The position numbers and the translations under genes were made by a program. This document shows, one piece after another, positions 3,333-31,166 of a stretch of DNA of 32,000 nt; the stretch's first letter is position 1; each line of letters begins with the position of its first letter. This DNA is from Aggregatilineales bacterium (GTDB lineage: Bacteria; Chloroflexota; Anaerolineae; Aggregatilineales; Phototrophicaceae). Location: contig JAVJSU010000072.1 in assembly GCA_040219275.1 (NCBI GenBank), forward strand, positions 56,099-88,098, given 5' to 3'. Below the pieces are notes generated by a model. The model saw nothing but the letters and a program-made list of their open reading frames with translations, was not told where the DNA came from and made no database searches.

Positions 3333-3448
3333 ATTTCATGTCTCCTTTTTGATCTAAGTCATAAGGTGAGGGCATCACAGGTGTGATGTTGCCCTACTGC
3401 GACGCGCCTCACCCATCGAACGAAACGGTTCTATCCTGAGATAGAGGA

Positions 3449-3688
3449 CTAAGGGAAAGTGATGAGCGTGGTGACGCTGGAGGCGAAGATGACGAAGAGC
3501 AAACCCACAACCACCTGATTGGCAGCTTTAGGATTATCCTTCTTCCAGTCCCCCACGATGGGCCATGAAGAACCCATATACATCACCCCTAGACCGATGA
3601 AGCCTATAACGGCGATCAACGGTGCGATGGTCTGTGCAGCGACCTGCACATCCCCAAAAAACTGTTCTATTGCGGTTGACAAATCCAA
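3449..3688 (-). CDS. Small two-TM membrane protein, VirB2/TrbC (pilin)-like topology
   Basis: 79 aa with two hydrophobic segments separated by a short polar loop (GDWKKDNPKAAN). It occupies the first position of the VirB3/VirB4-like gene string. Confidence 0.5.
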   Translation of the reverse strand: MDLSTAIEQFFGDVQVAAQTIAPLIAVIGFIGLGVMYMGSSWPIVGDWKKDNPKAANQVVVGLLFVIFASSVTTLITFP

Positions 3689-3889
3689 CGAAATTCCTCC
3701 TCGATATCGAGTGTTTCAGGAGATGAACGATTTATCAGGTTTCAAATAGCAGACAGGTCCTCTCGTCGTGCGCCATGACGCTGTATTTTCAGAGTGTGGG
3801 GTCATCCGGCACTTCGCAGAGAACCTCATCGCTACTGTCTTTCCTGACACTTTCAGCGTATCAAAATGACGTGGCTCAACCGTGCGAGG

Positions 3890-3920
3890 ATTTCAGTTTT
3901 CGGCTGTAAAATTTCATTCG
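3890..3920 (-). promoter_or_regulatory. Conserved upstream motif (copy 2), shared with 10388-10430
   Basis: ATTTCAGTTTT and GGCTGTAAAATTTCA are both identical to the segments at 10388-10407. The motif lies in the intergenic region upstream of the pilin-like gene. Confidence 0.35.
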
Positions 3921-3950
3921 GGCAATGAAAAATTTCGGAGATCAACATCC

Positions 3951-3993
3951 AATTAAAAAGCCCCCTGCTTCATTCCAGAAACAAGGGGGCTTT
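3951..3993 (-). terminator. Rho-independent terminator candidate after the 4016-5728 gene
   Basis: A 10-bp GC-rich stem (3957-3966 pairs with 3984-3993; AAGCCCCCT/AGGGGGCTT) is followed on the minus strand by a U-rich run. It starts about 20 nt after the stop codon. Confidence 0.55.
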
Positions 3994-4015
3994 ATATTGC
4001 AACACGGGATGTCGT

Positions 4016-8351: not shown

Positions 8352-8366
8352 ATTTGCACCTCCACT

Positions 8367-9080
8367 TTAAGGCTCGCTGATGTCGCCTACACAATACGGG
8401 TTGGTCTGGTTCGTCCAGTTCATCACGGCACTGCCCTCACTGACAGTCGGATCCAGCTGAAATGTGAAGCGTGCCGCCTGCCCTGCCGGACTAAAAGCAG
8501 CAAAACGAAAAACGCGCAACTCACCTGAATTCAGCGTGTAGGCATCCTCATCCAATGTCACGCCAGCTTCATCTGCCGCCTCACGGGTAGCGGGCCATAC
8601 CCCATTTACACTGACATAAGCCGTGTTGATTTCACTCAAAAACATCTGGGCAGTCGGAAAAATCTCGTAGTCGGCTGTACCGATATTCTTGACCTCCAAT
8701 TGCCAGGTGGTGATGTTACGGGCATCGCCATTGGTATCCGGCGACGCTGGATAGCTCATGATATTTTGTAAGCGGAAACGCACCCCATTCTCACTGCTGG
8801 ATGACCCGACAAAGATTGCATCACCGACATAAAAATCGGCGGGTGGCAGGATGATATAGGGTGTGGGTGGTGGCGCGAGTGTCGGCATCGCTGTTCCAGC
8901 CAACACCGTTGCTGTGGCTTGTGGGATGGGCGTGGGACAGGTATAGGCGGGCGAGCCCATTAAAGCCGTTCCCGCACAGGCTAAGATGGCAAAAATCATG
9001 AAGATGGGGATCACCAGCACATAAATTGAGCGCAATAACATCGTGCGCTGTACTTCTTTCAGGGATGGGTTGTTCTTCAT
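8367..9080 (-). CDS. Secreted or lipoprotein-like protein, unknown function
   Basis: 237 aa with an N-terminal TM/signal ending in FAILAC AG (lipobox-like), a Pro/Thr-rich linker and a beta-rich domain. Confidence 0.6.
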   Translation of the reverse strand: MKNNPSLKEVQRTMLLRSIYVLVIPIFMIFAILACAGTALMGSPAYTCPTPIPQATATVLAGTAMPTLAPPPTPYIILPPADFYVGDAIFVGSSSSENGVRFRLQNIMSYPASPDTNGDARNITTWQLEVKNIGTADYEIFPTAQMFLSEINTAYVSVNGVWPATREAADEAGVTLDEDAYTLNSGELRVFRFAAFSPAGQAARFTFQLDPTVSEGSAVMNWTNQTNPYCVGDISEP

Positions 9081-9094
9081 CTGACCTCACTCAT

Positions 9095-10327
9095 CTAAGG
9101 GATTAAGCCGGGCTGATTGCCGGGTTGCAATAAAAGCGTGAAACTGGCTTGTCCGCCACCGCTACGGCTGCGCGGAATATCCCAGACTGTACCAAAATAA
9201 GGGACAACAATTCGTGCCTCAGCCGAGGTCACTACCTGTAACTGGGCATAACCCTGTCCATCCGTAAATGCTTGAGCAATCACCCGATTGGTGCCGACTT
9301 CAACCGCACGGACTGAAATACCGCTCACGCCCTCGGCTGGATCGACATCCCGATTGCCGTTTTCATCGTAGGCAATCACCACTGAAACCGTCAGCAATCC
9401 GGGAGCAATGGGCGTTGACGTGGGCTGAATCGTTGGAGGTGCGGCGACCAATTCAATGCCAGCCGCAGGTTGTGGCACGGGCGAGGGTGTCGCACTGATG
9501 GCAGGTGGCGGAATAATCAGGGTATTGGCAGTGCCACGAAAAACCTGAATAGCATCCAATCCGATCACATAGCCTTCACTGGCAGGATTCTTATTTTGTG
9601 AACTACGGATAGTAAGCGTATGCGCTCCTGTCCCAACGAAATACACCTGTGTGCCGGGATAACTGAGTTCAGTCGCATAGGCATCCACTGTATCTACTAG
9701 CACACCATCCACGATGATGTCGAACATGCCCATATTGCGTGCCGCAACATAGCGAATTCGCAAGCCCTCCCCTTCAAAATGAAAGGCGACGGTGCTACTG
9801 GTATTCTCTGACCGATGATATTGCCCCTGACTGGCTTGAACGACCTGACGGGCTTGCCAGGGGCTGCTGTATTGCACCAGTGGATGATCGGATTCAAAAC
9901 TGTACCAACCTTCATAAGGTGGTGCTTCATGAGTCGCATTTGGCATCGGTTCAACCGGTTGTGGCGGTGCAGGCAGCAAAATCGTTCCCATCGGGAAGTT
10001 GGTTGGCATAGGCGGCACATAAACGCCAGGCATCACCGCTTGCATCTCCAGCAAACGCATCGCTAAAGTCGGTGTGAGCGTCGGCGTGAACGTCGCTGTT
10101 GCGCTGGCTGTTGCTGTAGGACTTGGCGTATCACTTGGCGTGCTGGTTTGCGTTGGCATCACCGTGTGAGTTGGCACATCCGTTGCAGTCAGTGTTGGCA
10201 ACACAAACAGCGTTGGCAAAACGGCAACTGTCGTCTGATGCTTACTCAACAATGCAAAAGCCAGTGCCCAGGTCATCAAACACAAGGCCAACAAGCCCAA
10301 CAAAATCAGGATCATTCTTTTTTGCAT
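9095..10327 (-). CDS. Secreted protein with a Thr/Pro-rich linker and a C-terminal Cna-B/SdrD-B-like repeat
   Basis: I chose the start at ATG 10325-10327 (MQKRMILILLGLLALCL) because GGAGG lies 5 nt upstream. It has a signal/TM and a TSTPSDTPSPTATASATATFTPTLTPT linker. The C-terminus YDENGNRDVDPAEGVSGISVRAVE...FTDGQGYAQL resembles Cna-B type folds. Confidence 0.65.
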   Translation of the reverse strand: MQKRMILILLGLLALCLMTWALAFALLSKHQTTVAVLPTLFVLPTLTATDVPTHTVMPTQTSTPSDTPSPTATASATATFTPTLTPTLAMRLLEMQAVMPGVYVPPMPTNFPMGTILLPAPPQPVEPMPNATHEAPPYEGWYSFESDHPLVQYSSPWQARQVVQASQGQYHRSENTSSTVAFHFEGEGLRIRYVAARNMGMFDIIVDGVLVDTVDAYATELSYPGTQVYFVGTGAHTLTIRSSQNKNPASEGYVIGLDAIQVFRGTANTLIIPPPAISATPSPVPQPAAGIELVAAPPTIQPTSTPIAPGLLTVSVVIAYDENGNRDVDPAEGVSGISVRAVEVGTNRVIAQAFTDGQGYAQLQVVTSAEARIVVPYFGTVWDIPRSRSGGGQASFTLLLQPGNQPGLIP

Positions 10328-10387
10328 ACGCCTCCAACTCCTGACAAACAAATACACTCTCCATCTTCGCAAATGAGAGCGCTGACA

Positions 10388-11983: not shown

Positions 11984-12016
11984 CGTTATAGTTTCGTTTG
12001 GTTTTTTGAGGGGGGA

Positions 12017-12202
12017 TTAATCTAAATGATCAGCATCTTCTGCTTTGATATACTCATCATTCATGGCGCGTTCGATATCAGCAAAATCTTCTTCGCTCAG
12101 CCCTTCACGAATATCTTCAAGTGCCGCAAGCAATTCATCCATATTCACTGTTTTAGAATTGGAAAATTCAGGATCATTTCCCCAGCCTTTTACGCCACTC
12201 AT
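12017..12202 (-). CDS. Small acidic hypothetical protein (possible partner of the HEPN-like gene)
   Basis: 61 aa from ATG 12200-12202 (...MDELLAALEDIREGLSEEDFADIERAMNDEYIKAEDADHLD). It overlaps the 3' end of the upstream gene by about 29 nt and is followed by a terminator. The start is uncertain; an internal ATG at 12142 is also possible. Confidence 0.4.
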   Translation of the reverse strand: MSGVKGWGNDPEFSNSKTVNMDELLAALEDIREGLSEEDFADIERAMNDEYIKAEDADHLD

Positions 12203-12935
12203 CAAAAATTACCTTGTCCTTATCTGATAATTTTTCGTATTCTTCAGCAAAAACAATAATTGGATCATCACAAAACCAATAGCTTTGACCAGCAACTAAT
12301 TCAAAAATTTCATCAATATCCAATTCATTTCGCTCGTCACGCGATTGACCGTAATCCCATGACCTAAGGTCATAATAGGTACTGAAACCAAGTACATGAA
12401 ATACACTCGATGAGGCATCAAGCAACTCCTGAAGAACATCAATTGAAAGTTGATAAGGCACAATGGATTCCGGTCCTGTTACTTTCTTCCAGTCAAGATG
12501 TGCGATGTGATGATTTCTTACTTCTGTAATTTTTTCCTCTAGCGAGGCAACTTTCTTTTCAAATCCCTTCGTCCTCTCGCGCAAAATCTCGTCCACTTCC
12601 AGGTCTATCTTATCTACACGATATTGTTTTGGATCAAATATTTTGTTCTTGAATCGGCGAAGTGAAAGTTCAGAGGATTTATCAAATATCGCTGAGAAAG
12701 CAATCAGAACTGAATCAAAAAATGACTTGTTGGTGAGTCGCCAAAACACCCGTTTGTCCTCCGGAACAAACAACTGATATGGGAAGTTGCTTAATCGACG
12801 TAAAATGATGATTTGTTGTGCAATATCAGAAAGATGTTGCCACGTAACTGCATGTTGCTTCTTGTATTCATCAACTTTTTCAGGCTTAATGACATCTTCG
12901 ACTTCAATAATTACCTCTGAACCCCATCGTTTCAT
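12174..12935 (-). CDS. HEPN-like (AbiU2/AbiV-style Rx4-6H motif) hypothetical protein
   Basis: 253 aa and clearly AT-rich relative to its neighbours. It is predicted all-helical. The motif EVRNHHIAHLD (R140-x5-H146, nt 12498-12518) matches the HEPN Rx4-6H signature. The start lies 3 nt after the ParR-like stop. Confidence 0.6.
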   Translation of the reverse strand: MKRWGSEVIIEVEDVIKPEKVDEYKKQHAVTWQHLSDIAQQIIILRRLSNFPYQLFVPEDKRVFWRLTNKSFFDSVLIAFSAIFDKSSELSLRRFKNKIFDPKQYRVDKIDLEVDEILRERTKGFEKKVASLEEKITEVRNHHIAHLDWKKVTGPESIVPYQLSIDVLQELLDASSSVFHVLGFSTYYDLRSWDYGQSRDERNELDIDEIFELVAGQSYWFCDDPIIVFAEEYEKLSDKDKVIFDEWRKRLGK

Positions 12936-12938
12936 AGA

Positions 12939-13364
12939 TTAATTCCATAATTCATCATCATCTTCATCCCCAAATAAATTACCCATACCAACACTAAACG
13001 TTTCACGGGCATCACTAGGATCAATGTGATCATCCGTTCCGGCGAACATACTTGGCAGTTCTTCCGGCTCGGTGGCTTCAGTGATCTGCACACCACCATA
13101 GCCACCTCCCCTGCCATGAATCAATCCTGTAATGAATGAAGCCATGAACTGCAAGAGATCCAGCGTCTTGCCCGTTTGCTCCTGTACCGTATGAACTGCC
13201 AGCAACATCCCCACCAGCACGTGTTTCAGCTTACGTTGACTGGCGAGTTCCTGTGCGACCTCCCAGGCTTTAGCTTGTGCTTCATCATCCAGATCAAACA
13301 CCAACAAATATGATCCTGATTCCGCCTGTCCATTGGGCGGTTTCTGATAATGCCGTTTCGCCAT
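12939..13364 (-). CDS. ParR-like partition adaptor candidate (RHH-like N-terminus, acidic C-terminal tail)
   Basis: 141 aa. The start overlaps the ParM-like stop (TAATG). The N-terminus SYLLVFDLDDEAQAKAWEVAQELA looks like strand-helix-helix. The C-terminus is acidic (GDEDDDELWN). The position immediately downstream of an actin-like ATPase matches parMR organisation. The function is an inference. Confidence 0.5.
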   Translation of the reverse strand: MAKRHYQKPPNGQAESGSYLLVFDLDDEAQAKAWEVAQELASQRKLKHVLVGMLLAVHTVQEQTGKTLDLLQFMASFITGLIHGRGGGYGGVQITEATEPEELPSMFAGTDDHIDPSDARETFSVGMGNLFGDEDDDELWN

Positions 13365-14632
13365 TATCCCGTTACTTTCCGGTTGACCTTCTTATTGCTG
13401 GCACTCATCGGCAGTGCACCATAAGCATTGAGTTCCCACAGTGGAATACCCTTCAAGTGCGGTACGACATCCGGATGCAGAATGTTTTTATTCGGATACT
13501 GTTTTAGGATTTGCGGCAGGATATACACCCAGCCACCACCTGCCAATAAGATCGAATCTGCCCCCTGCTGATAGCTACGCTCCAGCTTCTCTTCGATGAT
13601 ATAGCGAGAAAAACGCGCTGATACCAGTTCAAAAATCGCCTGTAGATCGAGAATCCGCCCGTTGAGTTTCACCCGTGCATAGTTGGGTTTCATCTTGCCC
13701 AGTGACCATTCTCGCAACCAGGCATCCACCTGTACCGGCTTCATGCGCGGTGTGGATTCACCTGCCTTGAGGAATTGATCGCGGATATAATCCATCACCG
13801 GTTCAATCATCTGGCGTAAAACTCCGGCATCCCGATCCGTTGCAAATGCCATGCTTTCTGCATCGAGCTTACCGTTACGAACAGCATAAGTGTCGTAGGT
13901 ACCATGACCCGCATCATGAATATGTACCTGCCCTGTCAGCAGATCATCTCGCCCATCTGAAGATGGAATTAACACATCATTTCCGTTGGCATCATAGGCA
14001 TACGCACTGAATGCTCCCACGCCCTCCGGCACAACAACGACTTTACCGATGATAAAGCTTCGAGGTTTCTTGTCATAGCTCATCTGGATGGTCCATGTGC
14101 CAGTTTTATCCTTCGCCTCACCATATTTGAGGTTCTGTTTAATCGCTTTTGCCACACTGTTGACCAATCCGGGAGGTGCAGAGGTGACAATCGTCAGCGG
14201 TGTATTTTCTGGTGCGTTAAGGGCTGCCAGCAGACATAACAACATGAAAATATGAATCTCTGAGCCATAGCGTTCTTCGGAGTTTACGAAAGTCTCTGGC
14301 GGATACTTGCTCTGCTCCCAGACGTTATCTCCAATGGCAAAGCGCCCCCCTGCTACATCCGCGTACACCATTTCGTTCAGCCCGATGGTGGTCACATCAG
14401 TGTTCATAGAATAGCCGGTAACTGGCACACGCACGTTAGGAAGCATAAAATAATGGAGTTCTCCATCCACTAAATGCCATGCACTGGATGTGCCATTACC
14501 ACCATCCCATGTGATGATTGTCGGATCGAGTTCCCATTGAAAATCACTGGCATTGGCATCTGCGGGCGTGAGTGGAATTAGCGTTTTATTCGGTTTATAT
14601 CGGATCATTTTGCGTCTCTTTCTTTTGCTCAT
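13364..14632 (-). CDS. Actin-like segregation ATPase (ParM/Alp family)
   Basis: Actin-fold nucleotide-binding motifs are present: IITWDGGNGTS (phosphate 1), VHIHDAGHGTYDT (phosphate 2) and SILLAGGGWVYI (adenosine). 422 aa. Confidence 0.8.
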   Translation of the reverse strand: MSKRKRRKMIRYKPNKTLIPLTPADANASDFQWELDPTIITWDGGNGTSSAWHLVDGELHYFMLPNVRVPVTGYSMNTDVTTIGLNEMVYADVAGGRFAIGDNVWEQSKYPPETFVNSEERYGSEIHIFMLLCLLAALNAPENTPLTIVTSAPPGLVNSVAKAIKQNLKYGEAKDKTGTWTIQMSYDKKPRSFIIGKVVVVPEGVGAFSAYAYDANGNDVLIPSSDGRDDLLTGQVHIHDAGHGTYDTYAVRNGKLDAESMAFATDRDAGVLRQMIEPVMDYIRDQFLKAGESTPRMKPVQVDAWLREWSLGKMKPNYARVKLNGRILDLQAIFELVSARFSRYIIEEKLERSYQQGADSILLAGGGWVYILPQILKQYPNKNILHPDVVPHLKGIPLWELNAYGALPMSASNKKVNRKVTG

Positions 14633-14679
14633 ATAAGAGTCTAACTGGCTTATTTGGATGGAAATTGGGCAAAATCGTT

Positions 14680-14707
14680 CCTATATATATGGTTGTATAT
14701 ATATAGG
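14680..14707. promoter_or_regulatory. Perfect 11-bp inverted repeat in the divergent parM / MerR-like promoter region (operator or parC-like candidate)
   Basis: CCTATATATAT-GGTTGT-ATATATATAGG lies in the 197-bp AT-rich gap between divergently transcribed genes. Confidence 0.5.
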
Positions 14708-14829
14708 GGGGTCTTTTTTGCTCCTTAGAGTTAAAATTGCCTTCTTTTTCGTAATTACACTACGGGATTAAAGCTATAATATAGAGTACACTTGTAGAAG
14801 TTACAAGTCAAGCTTATAGGAGTTGGAAT

Positions 14830-15375
14830 GTGAAAACTTATACACCTGGAGAAATTGCAGTTGTAATTGGAGTTAGTGCAAGCTCCATTAGAAATTGGAC
14901 TGAGCAAGAAGAACTTCAGCCTTATCTATCTGATATGGCAACCCGCCGGAATGATTTTGAACACGCTAAACAACGTGAATATACGATAGAAGACCTCTAT
15001 GTTCTAAATACAATTGGCAAAGCGAAGACACGTCACAATAGTTGGCAAGATGTAGCTGACTTCCTTGAAGATGGCAACATTTATAAGGATTTACCCGCTT
15101 CTGCCGCTTTGGTTCTACAGGAAACAGCTGCAGAAGGTTTTGCTGACAAAATAATGCTTCATCAGCGAATTGAGTTTCTGGAAGTAACTATCAGGGATCA
15201 AGAGGCTGAGATCGAACAGTTGCGCCAGCGAGTTGAGGAAGTTCGGAATGAAGAACGAGATGTAGCAAAGACTGAACGTGCAGAACTTCAATCAACCATC
15301 AACGATTTGAATCGATTGATCGGCAAACTAGAAGCAAAAATTGAAATGCTCAAGGAAAGCACAAACGACGAATGA
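14830..15375 (+). CDS. MerR/excisionase-type HTH protein with a C-terminal coiled coil
   Basis: YTPGEIAVVIGVSASSIRNWTEQ is an HTH. The C-terminal ~70 aa are heptad-like and E/R/K/L-rich. GTG start with AGGAG 9 nt upstream. Confidence 0.75.
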   Translation: MKTYTPGEIAVVIGVSASSIRNWTEQEELQPYLSDMATRRNDFEHAKQREYTIEDLYVLNTIGKAKTRHNSWQDVADFLEDGNIYKDLPASAALVLQETAAEGFADKIMLHQRIEFLEVTIRDQEAEIEQLRQRVEEVRNEERDVAKTERAELQSTINDLNRLIGKLEAKIEMLKESTNDE

Positions 15376-15428
15376 TATTGTCTAGTGTTCCAAAACAACA
15401 ATGCAGATAAGTAGGGCAGTTAGAAATC

Positions 15429-15815
15429 ATGAGCAAGAAAAAGCAACAAGGACATTATTGTAGGGTCTGTGGACGTTACCGAGCCAACGAAAAATTTAGC
15501 GGAAAAGGTCATCGACAGCATATCTGCAAGGACTGTAATCGTAACCAGCAAGCACAAAAGCGTGAGAAGAAACACGCAACAAAGCAAGCTGCTGAAGTTG
15601 GGTTACCAGTGCCCAAGCGTTATCCGATGACACGTTACCAGGCAGCCAGCTATCTCGGTATCACACCATCTGCATTTGATTATCGGCGTAAAAAACTAGA
15701 GCTGGAGCCATCTGGAACCTACGAGGGGAAACAGGGTACAGGCTTTCTCTTCGATATGGAAACAATTATCGCTGTTTACCGATACAGCCAAACGGATGGT
15801 AGTAACTCGGAGTGA
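15429..15815 (+). CDS. Zinc-ribbon plus HTH DNA-binding protein
   Basis: CRVCG...(17 aa)...CKDCN forms a 4-Cys ribbon, followed by a basic linker and then MTRYQAASYLGITPSAFDYRRKK, an excisionase/MerR-like HTH. Confidence 0.7.
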   Translation: MSKKKQQGHYCRVCGRYRANEKFSGKGHRQHICKDCNRNQQAQKREKKHATKQAAEVGLPVPKRYPMTRYQAASYLGITPSAFDYRRKKLELEPSGTYEGKQGTGFLFDMETIIAVYRYSQTDGSNSE

Positions 15816-16010
15816 ATTATGGCAGTGCAAATGACAGAATAGGGAATTGTGTCATTGTGGCAAATGGCATTTCCACTGCCGCATTTTTAACGGGTTTTTA
15901 TAGGTCTAAAGAGTTCAAAAATTAGGTAATTTTACGATTATTTGTCATAAACCGTCAAAAACAGGTCGGAAATGTAGCATTTAATGTGGCAGTAAACCTA
16001 TTGCCATAAT
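15816..16010 (+). repeat. Copy A of a ~195-bp intergenic direct repeat with 9-bp terminal inverted repeats
   Basis: It aligns with 19761-19956. A 76-nt block is perfectly identical (15845-15920 = 19791-19866). The ends are ATTATGGCA...TGCCATAAT. Confidence 0.9.
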
Positions 16011-16036
16011 TCACCAGATATACATACGAGGAAATA

Positions 16037-17056
16037 ATGGAGCAAAAACTATCTGTACAAATCCTAACGTATCTATGCAACCTCATCATGACATCGCCCT
16101 ATAGAACAATGCGTGAACTGACTATCTTCTTCAAACAATTCGATGTACCCGATGTGTATGGTAACCCGTCACGCACAAACTACACTGAACAGCAACTTAT
16201 TGAATTAAATAATCAGGGAAAGCTCATCTCTGTTATTGAACAAGCAGTTGATCCAAGAAATTTCTTTGAATCAGAAATTGACATTGAAGAGATCATTGCG
16301 GAAGCCAATCGGTTTCTTGCTCTTGATGATCTTTTACTCATAAAAGCAAGGAATGGCTACAAAGTAAAGCTTCTGGGAAATCGTCATCATTCTGGTCAAC
16401 CGATAAAGAACATCATTTTTGGCTCTACAGGACCAAAACCAGATATCGTTCTTCGTGATGCACTGACTAATCAAATCGAAATCACTCAAAATGCTGAACA
16501 CTGCCTAGTCTATGATCACCACATCAATGACGAAGCAGGGTTGTCATGGGATGAACTGGTCGAGTGGTGGATGAGTTTGAATCAGTTGAAAAGCAGAAGT
16601 GATATTATTGAAAGAGAACTCTATCAACGGTTGAGGAAATCAATCCCCGAAACATCACCACCCGCCCGCAACTTGTTTCATTCTTACTATAGCTTTAAGC
16701 AACAGGGGATTCAGCGGCTTCCTGCATTACTTCCAGAGGTATATCTTCACTTTGATCCTAAGACCATTATTGAACGAAATGGGAAAAAGGTTCTGAACCG
16801 ACAGCGAATGGATTTCCTTTTGTTATTGCCATACGATGTGCGTATCGTGATTGAGGTCGATGGCAAACATCACTATGCGGATGGGGATATCGCAAGCCCT
16901 GAAAGATATGGCGAGATGATGATGGAGGATCGAGAATTGAGATTGATGGGCTATGAAGTGTATCGCTTTGGTGCAGTGGAGCTAAACAAGTCTATTGCTG
17001 AATCTAATGTAAAGAGCTTTTTTCGGCGCATATTCAAAAAGTATGGTATTTTGTAG
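16037..17056 (+). CDS. Fusion protein with a C-terminal DUF559/Vsr-like PD-(D/E)xK endonuclease domain; candidate defence or abortive-infection gene
   Basis: The C-terminus RMDFLLLLPYDVRIVIEVDGKHHY...DRELRLMGYEVYRFG matches the DUF559 pattern (vDF...viEvDG.qH...D..R...L...Gy.V.RF). I do not confidently recognise the N-terminal ~230 aa; they may be AbiJ-N-terminal-like. The gene is AT-rich. Confidence 0.7.
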   Translation: MEQKLSVQILTYLCNLIMTSPYRTMRELTIFFKQFDVPDVYGNPSRTNYTEQQLIELNNQGKLISVIEQAVDPRNFFESEIDIEEIIAEANRFLALDDLLLIKARNGYKVKLLGNRHHSGQPIKNIIFGSTGPKPDIVLRDALTNQIEITQNAEHCLVYDHHINDEAGLSWDELVEWWMSLNQLKSRSDIIERELYQRLRKSIPETSPPARNLFHSYYSFKQQGIQRLPALLPEVYLHFDPKTIIERNGKKVLNRQRMDFLLLLPYDVRIVIEVDGKHHYADGDIASPERYGEMMMEDRELRLMGYEVYRFGAVELNKSIAESNVKSFFRRIFKKYGIL

Positions 17057-17127
17057 TAAAGTTCCCCATGAAGTGTGAACTCGTGGTATTCTTATAGTGC
17101 AACTCAAAACTGTTAGAAAGAATCAGA

Positions 17128-23481: not shown

Positions 23482-26400
23482 ATGTGGGCCAATCTACATC
23501 ACATCCTTTCTCAGATGTTCCATGAACTCAATGACGGGCAACCCCTCGAATCTCCCCAAAAACTATGGCAGAGATATCAACATGAGATACGTGCAATTCT
23601 TGATAATCCAGATGTTGATGACGAAGCTGTTATGGCTGTTAAACGTCATCTAGTTGAGATTGGCCCTGATATTTGGATTCCACAATCTTATGAGGCGGTC
23701 AGGGTATTGCAACAGTTGAAGCAACGTTTTTCCGCCGATGCAGAAGACCCTAATCCCCTCGTCGCGCAGCTTCGAGTTGAGGCACTAATTAGACGGCGGC
23801 CTGTTCGTGATATCCTGAGATCGAGCCTTGAAGAAGGGAAAATATCCCGAATTCTGGCGGATATTGGTCAGAAACACAAATATTCTCGTTTTCAAGTTGA
23901 TGGTTGGCGTCGAATACTCGAAGCTATAGGTGTACTCAAACATGACAATGCCCCTGAAAGTGTGGTGGTGGTGGCCCCGACAGGTTCAGGTAAAACTGAG
24001 GTCTTTCTCTTACCGGTTATTTATCACATTGCGAGTAAGCTCAACTCCAATGATGTGCCACGTTACATTATGATCTATCCACGTGTAGAGTTGCTGAAAG
24101 ATCAAGTTTCACGCAATCTAAAGTATGCTTATCGGGCCGAACAGCAATTTACTGATGGTCAGCAGTCAACATTCAATGGGCATCGGCAGGCCAAACACCC
24201 CTTTGTCGTTGGTATTCAATTTGGTGGTGTGAGATCCACTTATCAAGGGACCTTCAAAGAGAGAAGCCTGTTCGATGAGCAGAAGTATTTTCTTTTAGTA
24301 CCAACCTGTCCCATTTGTGAAGATAACATGCGTGAAGGCAATGAACAATGTGGAAGGTTGAAAGCAGGGCGTGCTAATGGGAGAGTAATTCCTTTGGAGT
24401 GTGACAATCTGAGTTGCGGTGCTGTCTTCCACGTCACTATTGGGAAAAACGATCATGCTGAAGCCCGAATTAAGCCGCACATACTTGTTACAACCATGGA
24501 ATCACTAGATAGACTGTATCTCAATCCCAAATTAGAGAGTTACATTCGCAACATTCAGGGCATCCTTCTTGATGAAGTTCACCTGTTTCACTCCCTATAT
24601 GGTGCACATATCTATAACCTTATTCGCAGAATTGAAGCTTTTCAAGAACATGGACAACCTTTGTCAAAGATTGCAGCGTCGGCAACAGTCTCTAACCCTG
24701 GACGCTTTATATCACGACTATTTTATGGCGTAGATGAGGACTCGCGTGTTGAAGTTCTGGACGCTGAACACTCTCATTACGATTTGGAGGATGCAGGTCT
24801 CGAAACTGTAGTGTTTCTACAAACTACGGAAACAGAAAGCTTTTCGCGAACGCAATCTACTCTGCTCCAGACAATCATGGCTGTTGGACACAGTGTATTG
24901 GGTGCTGATGAGCGGGCAATTGTATTTACAGAGTCTATCGATCATGCTAATCGAACCTACAGGCAACTTCTTGATGAGGAAAACGAAAAACGTTTGTGGC
25001 AGTTCCGAATGGCAGTGAATGATATTAAGTACAACGATGCAACTTGTCCAGCGACAAGCCCATTGGAATGCGACCATATCTATGCTAAAGGCGAATGCTG
25101 GCGTGCAATCCGTGGTGGTGTGCAATGTCATACGAACCTCATTGAGCCGTTTATAATTAATCGACCACTCAATGTCGATGTCATCACTTCGCAAGATCGT
25201 GGCAACTATTGGGATCCGGATGTGATCGTCGCAACTCCCGTACTTGAGGTCGGTGTTGATGATGAACGATTCAAAGCAACCATTCACTATCGTCCGCCTC
25301 AGTCCGTTTTTTCGTTCCTACAGCGCAGAGGCCGCGCTGGTCGTAGTGCAGGTGACACTGCCTATAGCATACTTGTTTTGGGACGTACACCGTCAGATGA
25401 GTTTTATTTCCGTCGCCGCAATCGCCTGATGGATCCAGGTAACTTCGAGTTACCACTCAATCCACGCAATGTTATCATCCAGAGTATGCATGATCAACTC
25501 GAGATTGAACGTGAAACAATTGGAACATATGTCAATCAGATGGGTAATCTTTCGAAGGCGATATTCCGATGGATGATAGAGAAGTATCTACGATGCCAAA
25601 CTTTATCACGGGTATTTGGAGAGAAACTCACTGAACTGCAAAATTCTGTTTTGCGCCAAGACAGTGATCATCAAACCTTGCAACAGGATTTTACGCAGTG
25701 GATCCGTGATCAGCATGATCGTTTCAAACGTCATTTGGATCTTGATCTCTTGCTTGATGAATTGACTTCACGAGTGCCTGTTGATCAACGTGGCAATGTC
25801 ACAAGATTTAGCGAAATGATATATGCCTACCGAAACAAAGAAGGAGTAGATATCGAAGAGATTAAACAACTCGGCAAACAAATTGCTATGGCGCTAGAAA
25901 GCATAATTTTCGACACTGAAGAAGAACTCGAGCAAGAGAAATATAAGCTACTACAGAATCTCATAAGAAAAATTACAAAAGACCATCAATCCATTGAACA
26001 GCTTGATATTGAGGCTGACCAGCGTCTTATCTCAGCACTCTATGACTACTTCAATTTACTTAAAGCACGCATTGTTGATGAGCGCTATCCGGGCACACTA
26101 AATCGAGCCGAAGATATGGTGAAGATAGTTTTACAGTCTCTCTTCTATATTGGTAATGCGTGTTTGTCACGACATTCTCATTGCGAGTCATGTACTCGTT
26201 ATTTTGTGCCAGATGCATATTTTCAGGAAGTTAAGCCAATTATTGTTGAGACATGGACAAACCGTGGCAAGAATCTTCAGGCTGAAATTCACGTAGAAGA
26301 TACAACAAAACTAGCCAACATGCTGTTGCCTTATAAAACATTCTACAGGTATTTCAGCGATCAAGATGCAATGGCTGTTTTGCGTACTACAACCAGTGCA

Positions 26401-27648
26401 GACTGGGTTTCACACGTCCGAAATCAGACCATAGTTCGTCTTGAACCAGGTATTGTCGGCGTACAGCGTAAAGTTTCTGATGAAATTACCGGCATTGAAC
26501 CCAACAAGATACATGTTGTTCCAATCCGACCTGATAAAGAAGGGCAGGGTGTGGTTGGTTTATGCCTCAATTGTTATGCTTTGCACCGTGCAAGTTACAA
26601 CGGTACATGTAGTACATGCGGCAATACTGAGATTACGAAGGTTCGCTTACGCTCTGAAGCAATTGTTCGGAGACAGGCTCTTTTCAAAAATGCGCTTCAA
26701 ATCTCGGATACTTTCTGGTATTGCCATGATCTTACAGGACATGTTCAGATTGATGGTGCTAATGTCCGTTATATTCGACAATGGTTTGATGGAGAGCAGT
26801 TCAAGAGTGTTGGAGGAGATCCTCAAGAATTTACGGCACTATATTATCGTAATGGTGAGGTTCCCTATCCCATTGTCTACGATCTTGTTACGCATGGCAT
26901 TGCTTGGGATTTGAGCAATGTTATTAGCCATATTTTGGGTGATGAGCAACTTCGAGAGACGATTTCACATTATCCGGATAAGAACTTTGATGCTGAGTTA
27001 ATCTTGCATACCGCATCTCATATGCTTCACAAAGCAATTGCCTCAATCAGTGGTGTGAACGACATTACACTTGAGTATGCTATTCAACGCAGTGGTATTG
27101 ATGGACGCGAGCGTGCGATGGTGGTGGTGTGGGAGCGCTACGAAGGTGGTGTAGGTATTTCCGAGATTATTCGAGACACACTGCAAGAAGATCCAATCTT
27201 ATTCTATCGAGAGCTACTCGCATCAGCACTTTGCCCAGTCTTTTATGCTGAGGACACTCAGTGGCCGGGCACCGATGAAAGTCTAAGACGGATTCTTTCA
27301 GAAAGATGGGCACTCGATGGCGAAGATATTCTAATCGATGGGATTATCCGCGAAGTAAAAGCCGAACGTGGTGCAATAGTAGCGCGGCAAGCGGAAGCAT
27401 CTCAAGCATGTAGTGAAGATGATGGTTGCCCTGCCTGTGTCCATGTTACAGTTTGCACTGAGCATATTGAACAGCCCCATAAGGTCAGCCGTTTTGTCGC
27501 AGAAGCCATTATGGATTATTTCCGCCTAACTGTGGATAACACTCGACTCGAGGCGATGAATCGGTATCGTAGAGAGACTCACGGAAGTGAAGCATTCCAA
27601 CTAAGACATAACCTTGAAGAGGATGTGTACGACATTGTGCGCTTTTAG
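23482..27648 (+). CDS. Large SF2 DEAD/DEAH-type helicase with a C-terminal DUF1998 (MrfA-type Zn-binding) domain; DrmA+DrmB-like
   Basis: Motif I is VVAPTGSGKTE, motif II is LLDEVHLFHS, motif III is ASATVS and motif VI is LQRRGRAGRS. Zn-ribbon inserts are CPICEDN...CDNLSCG and CLNCYAL...CSTCGN. The C-terminus is HTASHMLHKAI...VVVWERYEGGVGISE...CSEDDGCPACVHVTVC. GAGGAA RBS. Confidence 0.85.
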   Translation: MWANLHHILSQMFHELNDGQPLESPQKLWQRYQHEIRAILDNPDVDDEAVMAVKRHLVEIGPDIWIPQSYEAVRVLQQLKQRFSADAEDPNPLVAQLRVEALIRRRPVRDILRSSLEEGKISRILADIGQKHKYSRFQVDGWRRILEAIGVLKHDNAPESVVVVAPTGSGKTEVFLLPVIYHIASKLNSNDVPRYIMIYPRVELLKDQVSRNLKYAYRAEQQFTDGQQSTFNGHRQAKHPFVVGIQFGGVRSTYQGTFKERSLFDEQKYFLLVPTCPICEDNMREGNEQCGRLKAGRANGRVIPLECDNLSCGAVFHVTIGKNDHAEARIKPHILVTTMESLDRLYLNPKLESYIRNIQGILLDEVHLFHSLYGAHIYNLIRRIEAFQEHGQPLSKIAASATVSNPGRFISRLFYGVDEDSRVEVLDAEHSHYDLEDAGLETVVFLQTTETESFSRTQSTLLQTIMAVGHSVLGADERAIVFTESIDHANRTYRQLLDEENEKRLWQFRMAVNDIKYNDATCPATSPLECDHIYAKGECWRAIRGGVQCHTNLIEPFIINRPLNVDVITSQDRGNYWDPDVIVATPVLEVGVDDERFKATIHYRPPQSVFSFLQRRGRAGRSAGDTAYSILVLGRTPSDEFYFRRRNRLMDPGNFELPLNPRNVIIQSMHDQLEIERETIGTYVNQMGNLSKAIFRWMIEKYLRCQTLSRVFGEKLTELQNSVLRQDSDHQTLQQDFTQWIRDQHDRFKRHLDLDLLLDELTSRVPVDQRGNVTRFSEMIYAYRNKEGVDIEEIKQLGKQIAMALESIIFDTEEELEQEKYKLLQNLIRKITKDHQSIEQLDIEADQRLISALYDYFNLLKARIVDERYPGTLNRAEDMVKIVLQSLFYIGNACLSRHSHCESCTRYFVPDAYFQEVKPIIVETWTNRGKNLQAEIHVEDTTKLANMLLPYKTFYRYFSDQDAMAVLRTTTSADWVSHVRNQTIVRLEPGIVGVQRKVSDEITGIEPNKIHVVPIRPDKEGQGVVGLCLNCYALHRASYNGTCSTCGNTEITKVRLRSEAIVRRQALFKNALQISDTFWYCHDLTGHVQIDGANVRYIRQWFDGEQFKSVGGDPQEFTALYYRNGEVPYPIVYDLVTHGIAWDLSNVISHILGDEQLRETISHYPDKNFDAELILHTASHMLHKAIASISGVNDITLEYAIQRSGIDGRERAMVVVWERYEGGVGISEIIRDTLQEDPILFYRELLASALCPVFYAEDTQWPGTDESLRRILSERWALDGEDILIDGIIREVKAERGAIVARQAEASQACSEDDGCPACVHVTVCTEHIEQPHKVSRFVAEAIMDYFRLTVDNTRLEAMNRYRRETHGSEAFQLRHNLEEDVYDIVRF

Positions 27649-28105
27649 AGCTTTGCCGCGGATAATTGCAGAAATGCTTCTGGCAGCACCCAAATCCTCA
27701 GAGATATGTATTGTCAGTCCATGGATTCGTGAAGTTTTGCTGAAGCCTCCGATTATCGTGGGCACAGAAGGTGTGCTAGCTCAACACAAAACACCACTCA
27801 GCGAATTCCTTCATTTGCTTGTGTCTCGTAGGCACGTGCATTTGCACATATTTGTTCGAGAGTTTGACCGCGACATACGCACTATTACTCATGAAGTAAG
27901 GTTAGTGTTCCCTAATTCTATTCATATTCACGAAGAGCCACACCTACATGCCAAAGTGATTGCTACATCAAATAGCATTCTACAGATGTCAGCCAATCTA
28001 ATACCCACTAGCCTCTATCGTAACATCGAAACCTGTGCTATATCGACAAATAGGTACGGCTCTGCACGAACTTACACACATAACGAGCTGAAATTGGTTT
28101 TCTGA
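27614..28105 (+). CDS. PLD-family (HxK) nuclease-like protein; DrmC/DpdK-like
   Basis: A single HKD-like motif, HLHAKVIATSNSILQMSANL (27947-27997), with Ser in place of the canonical Asp. An N-terminal ICIVSPWI strand is typical of Nuc-like PLD folds. The start is uncertain: TTG 27614, ATG 27623 or ATG 27674. The first two overlap the helicase 3' end. Confidence 0.7.
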   Translation: MKRMCTTLCAFRALPRIIAEMLLAAPKSSEICIVSPWIREVLLKPPIIVGTEGVLAQHKTPLSEFLHLLVSRRHVHLHIFVREFDRDIRTITHEVRLVFPNSIHIHEEPHLHAKVIATSNSILQMSANLIPTSLYRNIETCAISTNRYGSARTYTHNELKLVF

Positions 28106-28109
28106 TATT

Positions 28110-28529
28110 ATGCCAAAGATTTACATCGCAGGTCCATTGTTTAATAGCCACGAGCGACGCTATCTTGAAGAAATAGCTGAAACGTTTGAGACATCTGGCT
28201 ATCCAACTTTTTTGCCGCACAGAGATGCTGGACTGGTTGATCGTTTGGATGAGACTACGCGCCGAACTATATTCCTTGCCGATCTAAAAGCATTAGACGA
28301 ATGCGATATATGTATTGCACTGCTCACTGGTGCAGACCACGACTCGGGTACTTCGGTGGAATTGGGATATATGTATGCGAAGGGTAAACCCTGTTTTGGC
28401 ATCACTGATGATATGAGGTGGATGAATAACATGATTTGGGGAGTATGCGGTTACGGACGGAATATTGCCTCCACCATTGGTGAGTGTATTAAACTCGTCA
28501 ATCAATTCGTTAATCAGGGACTTGTATAG
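28110..28529 (+). CDS. Nucleoside 2-deoxyribosyltransferase family protein
   Basis: MPKIYIAGPLFN...FLPHRD...GADHDSGTSVELGYMYAKGKPCFGI. The conserved DxGTxxExGy block containing the catalytic Glu is intact. The start lies 4 nt after the PLD gene stop. Confidence 0.8.
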   Translation: MPKIYIAGPLFNSHERRYLEEIAETFETSGYPTFLPHRDAGLVDRLDETTRRTIFLADLKALDECDICIALLTGADHDSGTSVELGYMYAKGKPCFGITDDMRWMNNMIWGVCGYGRNIASTIGECIKLVNQFVNQGLV

Positions 28530-29193
28530 GACTAAAGGGCATTGTAGAAGCGTCAGCATCAATTCCCTCTTGCCTTCTGAAAAAGCTCACCGTTGCATAG
28601 GTTAGTGGTGTTGCCATTGCTTCGTAAGCAGTCTTGAACAGCCACTGGGTGATAATGGCTGTTGCCAACTCATTGGTTGCGATCGTTCCACCAAATGCCA
28701 CGACGATGAATATCAGTGAATCCAGTCCCTGTCCGACAAAAGTCGATCCAATCGTTCTCGTCCATAACCACTTGCCCTTTGTTAGAGCCTTCATTCTCGT
28801 CAAGACATAGGCGTTCGTAAATTCGCCAATCAGATACGCGATGAAGGATGCCACCAGCAAACGAGGCGTGTATCCTAGAATTCGCTCATACGCCTCTTGT
28901 CCATCCCAGAAACCAGCAGGTGGAAGGAGTTGCCCGGCAATGAGACCGACTACGGCCAATAAGTTGCAAAAGAAGCCTAGCCAGATAACTCGTCGCGCAT
29001 TCTCGTATCCGTACACTTCAGTTAGAATATCGCCAACGATATAGCTAATGGGGAAAATTACTATTCCTGCTGGCATGATTAGGCCGAAAACATCTACTAG
29101 TTTTACGGCTGCGATGTTGGCAGTGATCAATGAGGTGATAAATACACCAACAATAGCTACAAACCAAATTGAATATCCGTTTCTTGTATCCAT
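28510..29193 (-). CDS. yhhQ: YhhQ/DUF165 (VUT) family queuosine-precursor (preQ0/preQ1) transporter
   Basis: 227 aa and polytopic. The N-terminal region SLITANIAAVKLV...PAGIVIFPISYIVGDILTEVYGYENARRVIWLGF matches the typical YhhQ-family signature. Confidence 0.8.
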   Translation of the reverse strand: MDTRNGYSIWFVAIVGVFITSLITANIAAVKLVDVFGLIMPAGIVIFPISYIVGDILTEVYGYENARRVIWLGFFCNLLAVVGLIAGQLLPPAGFWDGQEAYERILGYTPRLLVASFIAYLIGEFTNAYVLTRMKALTKGKWLWTRTIGSTFVGQGLDSLIFIVVAFGGTIATNELATAIITQWLFKTAYEAMATPLTYATVSFFRRQEGIDADASTMPFSPIQVPD

Positions 29194-29210
29194 ATGTTCT
29201 GCTTCCTAGG

Positions 29211-29870
29211 TTATCGATAAGGTATCGGGTCACTTATGCCGAGGGTTTCAAATGCCTTTACCCGTTCAACACACGTTGGGCAAATTCCACATGCCACCTC
29301 TTCACCTGCATAGCATGACCACGTTTTGCTGTAATCTACACCGAGTTCAAGCCCGATACGCAGGATATCTGCCTTCGAGAAGTTGAGAAAAGGTGCCACA
29401 ATATTAATATGACTTGGTGACAACTTATATAGGGCGTTGACGTGATTGACAAATTCCGGAGTTGTATCCCAATATCCGTAGATGTCATGTTTCTGAGCAC
29501 CATAGTATACCTCGTTTACACCTAACGTTTCAGCCCAGGCAATTGCCAATGCGAGAAAAATCATGTTTCTATTTGGTACATAAGTTGTTGGTTGTTCTTC
29601 TGGCAGGACGTTTGTTGCATTAGGAATATCAATCTGTTCGTTGATCAACGATGACATCGACCACAAAGCAGATAGTGATGATATATCAACGACTTTATGT
29701 AGCAGATTGAATACTGAAACATGTTTAGTTGCAAAGCTAACTTCTTTCTTGTGTCGCTGTCCATATTGAAAAGTGATTGCTGCCGGGTTGCGTTTTTGAT
29801 TTAACAGATAATACAGTAGCGTTGTACTATCAAAACCGCCGCTGAAAATTACAATACAATCGATTTGCAA
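29211..29870 (-). CDS. queC: 7-cyano-7-deazaguanine (preQ0) synthase QueC
   Basis: The PP-loop is VIFSGGFDSTT, followed by YVPNRNMIFL. The C-terminal zinc cluster is SCY...CGICPTCVERVKAF. TTG start. Confidence 0.9.
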   Translation of the reverse strand: MQIDCIVIFSGGFDSTTLLYYLLNQKRNPAAITFQYGQRHKKEVSFATKHVSVFNLLHKVVDISSLSALWSMSSLINEQIDIPNATNVLPEEQPTTYVPNRNMIFLALAIAWAETLGVNEVYYGAQKHDIYGYWDTTPEFVNHVNALYKLSPSHINIVAPFLNFSKADILRIGLELGVDYSKTWSCYAGEEVACGICPTCVERVKAFETLGISDPIPYR

Positions 29871-29891
29871 TGACTTATCCTTATCTCATAT

Positions 29892-30926
29892 TTAGAGATT
29901 TATCAGTTTCTCTATGATTTCTTGCGGATTATATACGCTTACAGGTGCACGGGTCGAGCCATCTAGGATGCCGATATAATCCTGGGTTGTCTTGACATCA
30001 ACATGTCCCAGATTTTGTCGAATGACCTCGGTTGGGATGCCGGCTAGAAATAGATTCCGTGCGTAGCTCCGACGCAGATCATGCGGTGTGACGTTGGTTG
30101 GAACACCGTTAATCGCGATGGGATAGCGTTTCAACATGCGCTGTACACTGCGGGTCGTCATCTTTTTGTAAGTCGCCACCTGTTTTAGCATATCACCGCG
30201 ACCATCGGACATTTTTGTGAACACAAAACCTGACTCAAGTCCAGCCAGCCAGATTTCTGTGATCTGTCGTGCCCAGAGCATATCGCCGAAAGGCACCATT
30301 CTTGCTTTTGACCCTTTGCCTGACTTTACCCGTACAGCAGGAACACTACCATAAGTCTGATAAAGATCATCGACTTGGAGTTTGACGATTTCACCCTCGC
30401 GTAAGCCGGTTGCCAGCATCAGCGCAATAATTGCCACATCACGCCGCCCACGCAGTGTCGAGACATCGGGTTGCATCATCAGCGCCGCGCCCTGTGCCGG
30501 AGTAAGACGAATGTGTTTGCTGTCTTCTTCATCCTGAACAGTCTGCGTCGTTACTTGTGAGCGTTCAGGGTCAATCGCCCGTATTAACCGCAACTCAAGT
30601 TCATCAGCTTTGGCTTTGATGGTCGCAAAATCCTCGTTGAGAAATTGCTGTTCCAGATAGGCAACTAAAGCCACCCGATGGTCCAGACTTTCAACCAACA
30701 GCTTGTAACTGCGGCGGATGCTGGATAGATGGGCACGCACACTCGATGGCGCGAGCGTGGCCAGCAGATGGTCGCGGTAAGTGCTCAAATCTGGCAGATA
30801 CATTGCATGTCCTGTTTCGGCCAGCCAGTTATTATATCGTGCTACATGCGACACGATATTTTTGTTATCAGAATGTGGTGGTAAACCACCACCTAAAGCT
30901 CGTTGAGTGAGGTCATTTTTAACCAT
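29892..30926 (-). CDS. Tyrosine recombinase/integrase
   Basis: The catalytic-domain pattern is present: ATGLREGEI (R), TPHDLRRSYA (HxxR) and LGHVDVKTTQDYI (H...Y). An N-terminal SAM-like core-binding region is also present. I prefer the ATG at 30924-30926 over the TTG at 30944. Confidence 0.85.
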   Translation of the reverse strand: MVKNDLTQRALGGGLPPHSDNKNIVSHVARYNNWLAETGHAMYLPDLSTYRDHLLATLAPSSVRAHLSSIRRSYKLLVESLDHRVALVAYLEQQFLNEDFATIKAKADELELRLIRAIDPERSQVTTQTVQDEEDSKHIRLTPAQGAALMMQPDVSTLRGRRDVAIIALMLATGLREGEIVKLQVDDLYQTYGSVPAVRVKSGKGSKARMVPFGDMLWARQITEIWLAGLESGFVFTKMSDGRGDMLKQVATYKKMTTRSVQRMLKRYPIAINGVPTNVTPHDLRRSYARNLFLAGIPTEVIRQNLGHVDVKTTQDYIGILDGSTRAPVSVYNPQEIIEKLINL

Positions 30927-30942
30927 GAGTAGAGTATACCAC

Positions 30943-30976
30943 AAAGTGTCGCATTATTCCTATTATACGACACTTT
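30943..30976. promoter_or_regulatory. 9-bp perfect inverted repeat bracketing a TATAAT box upstream of int (operator candidate)
   Basis: On the minus strand, AAAGTGTCG-TATAATAGGAATAATG-CGACACTTT ends 17 nt upstream of the int ATG. Confidence 0.4.
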
Positions 30977-31166
30977 AAGAGGCAGTTTTAGACCCTGTTT
31001 TCTGGCTTTCAAGAGTACGATTTGAGAAGGGTGAAAATTGAGAAAGGCATCGTTTTGTGCGCGTGCTGGTCAGCGGGTCGCCATCTGATTCCCGAACGGT
31101 TGGCCCTGGCTAATCCGTTTTCTTCCCCTTTCGCTTTACGTCTTCTGGCTTCACATCCTCTGCTCA

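Follow-up and report, generated by a model that had tools for sequence, protein, structure and literature searches.

The subject of this analysis is a 32,000-nucleotide stretch of DNA from an Aggregatilineales bacterium of the phylum Chloroflexota (assembly GCA_040219275.1, contig JAVJSU010000072.1, positions 56,099 to 88,098; hereafter the window, numbered from its first nucleotide). Two neighbouring genes on its plus strand encode a helicase of 1388 residues (positions 23482..27648) and a small phospholipase D-like (PLD) protein (27635..28105). We consider it probable that an integrase-bearing mobile island carries a compact Dpd-like 7-deazaguanine restriction-modification system here, with the two genes as its restriction module. 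This reading is proposed because the two proteins are homologous to DpdJ and DpdK and because of the synteny of their genes. The gene structure, motifs and folds, the homology to DpdJ and DpdK, the synteny, the rarity of the genes and their location on a mobile element were all established directly. The original prediction, made from the letters of the window, had designated the pair the restriction or effector half of the locus. The homology agrees with that designation, the genes dpdD-dpdK being those that confer the Dpd restriction phenotype (PMC10164549); the role itself is deduced from homology and synteny.

A DpdJ-related helicase of the YprA family

The helicase open reading frame (ORF) is free of stop codons. 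The superfamily 2 (SF2) motifs listed in the original prediction were all found intact, GSGKT at residues 168-172 (Walker A, positions 23983-23997), DEVH at 364-367 (24571-24582), SAT at 400-402 (24679-24687) and QRRGRAGR at 614-621 (motif VI, 25321-25344). About 70 full-length homologues were found, and conservation was assessed by aligning 32 full-length sequences that share 31-88% identity with the query. The motif residues are invariant or nearly so in this alignment, and thus are not chance strings.

The protein begins with a region of 134 residues (23482..23883), of which residues 57-134 align to positions ~82-152 of the canonical DpdJ profile in hhalign. The first RecA lobe (RecA1; approximately residues 135-440, 23884..24801) matches Pfam DEAD and ResIII and is interrupted by a zinc-binding insert (CPIC...CDNLSC, residues 276-312; 24307..24417) whose ligands C276, C279, C307 and C312 are kept in 30-32 of the 32 homologues and which is aligned to a corresponding CxxC...CxxC insert in canonical DpdJ. 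The second lobe (RecA2; approximately residues 441-679, 24802..25518) matches Pfam Helicase_C. It holds a cluster of four cysteines (C522, C530, C539 and C549; 25045..25128), kept in 31-32 of 32 and presumably zinc-binding, that had been overlooked: the two ribbons described previously are both present, but the complete count of conserved Cys clusters is four. The other two lie further downstream. One is a zinc ribbon (CLNC...CSTC, residues 1028-1046; 26563-26619) within an OB-like beta domain (residues 919-1143, 26236..26910), with C1028, C1031 and C1046 present in all 32 homologues and C1043 in 19. The last belongs to a CON plus MZB/DUF1998 module (residues 1144-1348, 26911..27525), in which the ligands C1251, C1310, C1316 and C1319 are found in 32/32 and which includes the motifs HTASHMLH (1176-1183), YEGGVG (1220-1225) and CSEDDGCPAC (1310-1319). 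Between RecA2 and the OB-like domain lies a helical domain (residues 680-895, 25519..26166), and a tail of 40 residues (1349-1388, 27526..27645) ends the protein. With the whole protein as query, Pfam returned nothing beyond the generic domains DEAD, Helicase_C and ResIII. The MZB domain (PF09369, formerly DUF1998) was missed in that scan and was recovered when residues 1140-1388 were submitted alone (28.7 bits against a cut-off of 24.2), as expected from the earlier assignment of the C-terminus to the DUF1998/MrfA type.

The middle of the protein, previously regarded as unassignable, could be assigned by structure prediction. An AlphaFold2 (AF2) model of residues 680-1388, built with the 32 homologues, reached a mean predicted local distance difference test score (pLDDT) of 85.5 and a predicted TM score (pTM) of 0.77. 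It comprises an all-helical part (680-895; block pLDDT mostly 71-91) that matches only generic helical bundles, a beta-rich part (919-1143) with the second CxxC ribbon, an alpha/beta part with the four cysteines (1144-1348) and the tail, which forms a small beta-alpha-beta-beta element. Foldseek with this model returned MrfA (6ZNP, 5.7e-6) and DrmB (7S9V chain B, 1.1e-4) and no others below 0.1. In an exhaustive VIA-align comparison MrfA scored Z 14.4, with residues 233-669 of the model on MrfA 489-749, and DrmB Z 10.9, with 318 of 529 residues aligned; the OB-like domain lies inside the stretch aligning to these two proteins, and the CON-DUF1998 module folds as its counterparts in both. Matches in the AlphaFold DB were to YprA, Druantia DruE and DrmB. 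An OB-CON-DUF1998 canopy is common to the whole YprA family, and a variable helical domain follows RecA2 in all homologues (Bell et al. 2025, bioRxiv 10.1101/2025.09.15.676423). As judged from the model, the middle region thus consists of the ordinary helical and OB-like domains of the YprA family, decorated with a zinc ribbon. Overall, the helicase belongs to the YprA/MrfA family, with an SF2 DExH core and an OB-CON-DUF1998 canopy.

Within this family, sequence comparisons place DpdJ closest. PADLOC identified the helicase as DpdJ (5.5e-72 over residues 71-736); the runners-up, BrxH, DruE (9.4e-15) and DrmA (2.6e-14), gave local matches in the range of 1e-13 to 1e-22. The NCBIfam DpdJ model (NF041067) scored 219.7 bits over profile positions 72-668 of 1482, the next family reaching 67. 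Alignment of the helicase family with ten canonical DpdJ sequences in hhalign gave a probability of 100% (E 3.4e-61, 28% identity) over residues 57-700, the RecA1 zinc insert included. A maximum likelihood tree was computed from 46 sequences, with Lhr as root. In it, the helicase family together with distant relatives is sister to canonical DpdJ, with a Shimodaira-Hasegawa-like approximate likelihood ratio test (SH-aLRT) value of 99, and stands apart from Lhr and from the other MZB-bearing YprA-like helicases sampled, a set that leaves out DrmA, DruE, MrfA and ARMADA sequences. By these sequence comparisons, the nearest named relative of the helicase is DpdJ, not DrmA of DISARM.

The helicase is nonetheless not a DpdJ equivalog. 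Its NCBIfam score falls short of the equivalog cut-off of 800 bits, whereas canonical DpdJ proteins score 1468-1565, and the partial length of the match and the retained 4-Cys cluster also speak against equivalence. Canonical DpdJ is reported to have lost the DUF1998 4-Cys cluster and to carry helical insertions and an ALBA-like C-terminal domain (Bell et al. 2025). Here the cluster is kept, and in the model the tail of about 40 residues looks, in our judgement, too small for such a domain. RecA2 and the OB domain each hold an extra Cys cluster, a further difference from DpdJ. The public label "DEAD/DEAH box helicase" could be replaced by DpdJ-like, and "hypothetical protein", given for the small PLD protein, by DpdK-like.

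The original prediction had described the helicase as a DrmA+DrmB-like fusion. The resemblance holds for the C-terminal 440 residues, which fold as DrmB and as the C-terminus of MrfA; residues ~930-1348 are those that superpose on DrmB. It does not extend to the affiliation, the closest family being DpdJ/DpdK and not DrmA/DrmB/DrmC. DISARM shares with the locus the YprA-family superfamily, a PLD-family partner and, according to Bell et al., a zinc insert in RecA1. However, helicase and canopy form one polypeptide here and are the products of two genes, drmA and drmB, in DISARM; the PADLOC matches to DrmA are short, weak and local; the PLD protein, with 156 residues, is too short to accommodate the 4HB domain tied to DISARM by Bell et al.; and the scans of the operon genes (20976-29870) gave no methyltransferase, the linked modification gene being of the deazaguanine (TGT) type. 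The locus is therefore not DISARM.

Among solved structures, the best match in both sequence profile (E 5.5e-31) and fold is MrfA/YprA of Bacillus subtilis (6ZNP), whose domain order, RecA1, RecA2, helical, OB, CON and DUF1998, is identical. Taken by itself, this match would suit a housekeeping repair helicase acting with a repair nuclease, in the manner of MrfAB. MrfA, a protein of 749 residues, belongs to the DNA-repair branch of the YprA family (Bell et al. 2025), whereas the helicase studied here is longer by about 640 residues, has three extra Cys clusters and resides in a mobile-element context. It was found in only three (two genera) of 401 Chloroflexota genomes, and a search with residues 680-1388 yielded 67 cluster representatives among 1.84 billion proteins. 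The gene lies on a low-GC integrase island, and its partner is a PLD protein. MrfB, on the other hand, is a DnaQ-like exonuclease. The grouping with housekeeping MrfA/YprA helicases that the original prediction had singled out for checking did not emerge: the helicase is sister to DpdJ and not to the other YprA-like sequences sampled in a tree without MrfA itself. Rarity, mobile context and tree together make a repair role very unlikely.

A small DpdK-like gene overlapping the helicase gene

The PLD gene has three candidate start codons, TTG at 27614, ATG at 27623 and TTG at 27635, all of which precede the helicase stop codon (27646-27648), in agreement with the overlap noted in the original prediction. 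The TTG at 27635, which entails a 14-nt overlap with the end of the helicase gene and lies 11 nt past an AAGAGGA stretch, is favoured by the N-termini of the homologues (M-S-CAFRALP) and by the public gene call of 156 residues. The overlap recurs in close relatives, as judged from gene calls (loci L001 and L085; relatives are numbered L throughout) or tblastn (L084 and L088), and in the distant L102; in several others the PLD match begins ~60-190 nt past the end of the helicase match.

A divergent single-HKD PLD protein, in which the customary Asp is changed to Ser, had been proposed. The PLD fold was confirmed, as were the residues named: HAK occupies residues 112-114 (27947-27955) and SAN residues 126-128 (27989-27997; residues numbered from the TTG at 27614), with Ser at the usual Asp position. 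Among 20 homologues of 156-160 residues in public collections, the H, A and K, S-A-N, I-P-T-S, R-N and an E are invariant; the Asp position, in contrast, is occupied by S, N, D, P, A or R, and the Gly of GSxN is replaced, compared to the consensus HxK(x)4D(x)6GSxN. The one canonical DpdK examined, that of Streptomyces (L087), has Pro at this position (H-E-K-C-L-V-G-P). Since the position varies across the family and Asp is absent from this canonical DpdK, the Ser is not peculiar to the gene of the window.

Relationship to DpdK was indicated by PADLOC (7.4e-9), by the NCBIfam DpdK model (NF041068; 29.7 bits, E 4.3e-7, residues 18-147 against 22-153 of 167, below the cut-off of 100) and by alignment of the PLD family with Streptomyces DpdK in hhalign (96.4%, E 1.1e-9 over 126 columns; sizes 156 and 171 residues). 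By these comparisons the small PLD protein is a divergent DpdK. A PDB search with the PLD sequence profile gave no matches, and the fold was recognised by structural comparison alone: the AF2 model (pLDDT 89.4) matched PLD3/PLD4 exonucleases, Zucchini and NucT in Foldseek with probability 1.00 and superposed on single-domain members with a TM score of ~0.55-0.6. By analogy with Nuc-type enzymes, we infer that the protein is a phosphodiesterase acting as a homodimer.

Association with a transglycosylase and candidate functions

Upstream of the helicase, separated from it by 23 nt, lies the presumed modification partner, a gene for a fusion of TGT and DUF5591 (TGT-DUF5591; 21539..23458, plus strand; Pfam TGT 7.3e-21, DUF5591 7.8e-15). 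Gene contexts were compared across about 20 loci; many of these are short metagenomic contigs, and some come from related organisms. A scan of genome contigs with the full-length alignment returned mostly generic helicases, since its pattern derived from Walker A, and L003 and L004 were the only family members among its matches. The co-occurrence of the helicase with PLD and transglycosylase genes had been suggested as a check. TGT-DUF5591 adjoins the helicase in 12 loci, namely L001, L083, L084, L085, L086, L089, L095, L096, L098, L099, L004 (an archaeal metagenome-assembled genome) and the distant L102, where the helicase, PLD and TGT genes overlap one another. Of the 20 loci with a 3' flank, about 12 have a PLD ORF behind the helicase. 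In the cyanobacterium Pannus brasiliensis (L003, 5237-9581) the helicase gene lies beside an 805-residue DUF6884/YaaA-like + TGT fusion (DpdC-DpdA-like) and a DndB-family (DpdB-like) gene, without TGT-DUF5591, and no PLD gene was found within 10 kb. A DUF6884 gene occurs in L103 as well.

Other genes recur. A nucleoside 2-deoxyribosyltransferase (Ndt) gene (28110..28529, plus strand; Pfam Nuc_deoxyrib_tr 3.5e-25) starts 4 nt past the PLD stop codon in the window; homologues 61-65% identical follow the PLD gene in L088 (1775-2158) and come immediately after the helicase in L083 (12094-12516). Ndt is thus a recurrent accessory of the system. YhhQ is found again in L083, L084 and L086, and QueC in L086. 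In Thermogemmatispora, a PD-(D/E)xK protein (DUF4365 gene) was considered as a substitute for the PLD protein and discarded, the gene and its neighbour representing a separate PADLOC candidate system, PDC-M02: the two genes after the helicase of L098 (Thermogemmatispora-like genome G111, 13756-15461) are its A and B subunits, with E values down to 6.8e-246. The helicase homologue of L098, too, is thus surrounded by defence genes.

The arrangement resembles Dpd of the Salmonella Montevideo type in several ways. The DpdJ helicase core is homologous over ~640 residues; in both systems a small single-HKD PLD protein without the canonical Asp is encoded directly downstream of the helicase, as in the canonical Streptomyces dpd cluster, where DpdK comes directly after DpdJ; and each is associated with QueC and with a DNA transglycosylase of the TGT family. 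Dpd helicases are partnered with PLD proteins lacking the 4HB domain (Bell et al. 2025). Unlike in Dpd, the transglycosylase is the TGT-DUF5591 fusion and not DpdA, and genes for DpdB-I were not found in the window by domain and defence profile scans. Some similarity also exists with BRIGADE of halophilic archaea, which likewise combines a module for deazaguanine biosynthesis and insertion with one or more YprA helicases and a small PLD nuclease (Bell et al. 2025). However, BRIGADE has been reported only in halophilic archaea and its helicases, usually two, are ARMADA-like with a BrxA-like insert, whereas the chloroflexotal locus has a single helicase, which falls on the side of DpdJ in the tree.

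Based on these relationships, the following sequence of events can be envisaged. TGT-DUF5591 would insert a 7-deazaguanine derivative into host DNA, the base being provided through salvage by the QueC and YhhQ of the island. By analogy with MrfA and DrmAB, the helicase would act as a DExH motor that loads on single-stranded or end-containing foreign DNA, hydrolyses ATP and passes one strand through the space that separates the RecA lobes from the OB-CON-DUF1998 canopy (Bell et al. 2025). The PLD protein, produced by coupled translation and probably homodimeric, would combine two HxK...SxN half-sites into a single active site, in the manner of Nuc-type enzymes, and cleave the DNA engaged by the helicase, while modified self DNA would be spared. 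In this scheme, we infer the DNA substrate and polarity of the helicase, its contact with the PLD protein, the nuclease activity of the latter and the discrimination between modified and unmodified DNA.

Several observations weigh against the assignment of the pair to restriction. Both proteins lie far under the NCBIfam equivalog cut-offs, and the match of the C-terminal half of the helicase to canonical DpdJ is weak, comprising 45 columns about the WERYEGG core, which has the corresponding position in DpdJ, with a probability of 29%. In canonical Dpd itself no separate function has been assigned to DpdJ or to DpdK (PMC10164549), and the present clade is known from sequence only. The PLD protein lacks the canonical Asp, and among the matches of its model is the PLD-like domain of TrmBL2, for which only a role as a DNA-binding chromatin or regulator protein is described. 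In about 8 of the 20 loci with a 3' flank the search for a PLD gene behind the helicase was negative, including L083, L098 and L099 (both Thermogemmatispora), the archaeal L004, the cyanobacterial L003, L090 and L093; in such loci the nuclease must be either dispensable or supplied elsewhere. As to the sensing of base modification, neither the helicase as a whole nor its middle region finds support for such a role among the results obtained here.

These exceptions lead to the main rival explanation, that the helicase belongs to the modification half, as an ATP-driven helper that opens DNA for TGT-DUF5591 in place of the DpdB ATPase, with the PLD protein being optional. The TGT and helicase genes are indeed the most constant pair, the PLD gene being missing in L083, L098, L099 and L004, and profile scans of the window found no DpdB/DndB-family gene. 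Furthermore, DpdA requires the DpdB ATPase in vitro, and a helicase-like role for DpdB has been weighed by the authors of that work (PMC10164549). The transglycosylase, however, also occurs alone. Homologues 32-42% identical were found without a nearby helicase of the family on a conjugative element, next to a TIR/VMAP/MoxR system (L100, G233:C2:243000-262900), and on a DUF3987/primase element together with a serine recombinase and a weakly matching C5-methylase-like gene (L101, G102:C29:2000-21900), where they look like stand-alone devices for DNA marking by mobile elements. Among the 401 genomes TGT-DUF5591 was present in six, as opposed to three for the helicase and one for the PLD gene. 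Modification would thus not need the helicase. Phage DpdA enzymes are not known to need a helicase for inserting the base. The solo occurrences of TGT-DUF5591, the cyanobacterial locus L003, where a DpdB-like gene and the helicase coexist, and the position of DpdJ, the closest named relative of the helicase, in the dpdD-K block assigned to restriction (PMC10164549) weaken the case for a modification helper, which we regard as unlikely.

Alternatively, helicase and PLD protein might provide defence independent of modification, acting on single-stranded replication or recombination intermediates as reported for Druantia DruE, the TGT protein marking the DNA of the mobile element against the restriction enzymes of other hosts and not against this pair. 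Fold and family are common to the helicase and DruE, and recent preprints report recognition of single-stranded DNA by DruE; the solo TGT-DUF5591 genes on conjugative and primase-bearing elements would resemble anti-restriction cargo. On the other hand, in bacteria and archaea alike the helicase has a gene for a deazaguanine-type transglycosylase as an immediate or close neighbour, and the genes frequently overlap, as befits one functional unit, and the helicase groups with DpdJ in the tree (DruE and ARMADA sequences being outside the sample), with the PADLOC match to DruE far under that to DpdJ. This tight synteny across domains of life weakens the Druantia-like explanation, and we consider it improbable.

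If the pair is a restriction module, as we favour, the three genes would probably constitute an anti-virus system that marks the DNA of the cell with a 7-deazaguanine base. Helicases of the YprA family have a central place in DISARM, Dpd and Druantia (Bell et al. 2025). The restriction side of Dpd consists of eight genes (dpdD-K) without an assigned mechanism; the clade described here reduces it to a helicase and a predicted nuclease of 156 residues beside a single modification enzyme, and so offers a simpler system for asking how a YprA-family helicase separates DNA marked with 7-deazaguanine from DNA without the mark. The clade further closes a gap in the YprA tree as published, in which certain deep-branching Dpd-like systems retaining the 4-Cys cluster are mentioned and not described (Bell et al. 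2025); we found no description of this helicase clade or of its pairing with TGT-DUF5591 in those portions of the text and supplement of that work to which we had access. More speculatively, the DpdJ-like helicase, the DpdK-like PLD protein and the one transglycosylase might make up a complete and self-sufficient three-gene deazaguanine restriction-modification system, in which the single zinc-rich helicase would itself read the modification through its OB/zinc-ribbon canopy. This is a tentative proposal that we hold to be more doubtful than not. If it were true, the much larger Dpd systems would have DpdJ-DpdK as their minimal core for restriction, and this clade, with its 4-Cys cluster retained, would be near the ancestral form.

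The mobile island

The operon is embedded in a segment of low GC content (window positions ~12000-31000; 0.38-0.50 per kb, compared to ~0.52 in the flanks). Its genes are, in order, a winged helix-turn-helix gene (LexA_DNA_bind), TGT-DUF5591, the helicase, the PLD gene and Ndt. Converging on it from the opposite strand are genes for YhhQ/Vut_1, QueC and a tyrosine integrase. On its 5' side lie a primase, DUF3987, small helix-turn-helix genes, an AbiJ-like, a ParM-like and an AbiU2 HEPN gene. The locus provides further evidence that defence modules of this kind move on primase- and integrase-bearing elements. Neither a tRNA gene nor att-like direct repeats were found at the island borders, and a promoter and terminator scan of positions 20800-29300 returned fewer sites than shuffled controls and was therefore uninformative on the operon boundaries.

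The QueC gene of the island (YhhQ/QueC region, 28510-29870) is the sole copy in the source genome. In that assembly, which is 97% complete, QueD/PTPS (PF01242) was not found, nor was QueE with a Streptomyces QueE query. Hence modification seems to rely on salvaged precursors imported by the island YhhQ.

PADLOC returned no matches for the AbiU2-like, ParM-like, AbiJ-like and DUF3987 neighbours. The AbiU2-type HEPN protein (Pfam 4.6e-14) and a weakly matching actin-like ParM/ALP protein are encoded on the minus strand (12174-12935 and 13364-14632, respectively) at the left edge of the low-GC stretch. Between the island and a topoisomerase fragment at the start of the window, five minus-strand ORFs (758-10372; 747, 570, 881, 237 and 425 residues) had no Pfam match at the thresholds used. 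Finally, an element of 173 nt is present in two direct copies, 90% identical (15839-16011 and 19785-19957), which flank the block running from the AbiJ-like gene to DUF3987 and are each preceded by a related 24-mer.

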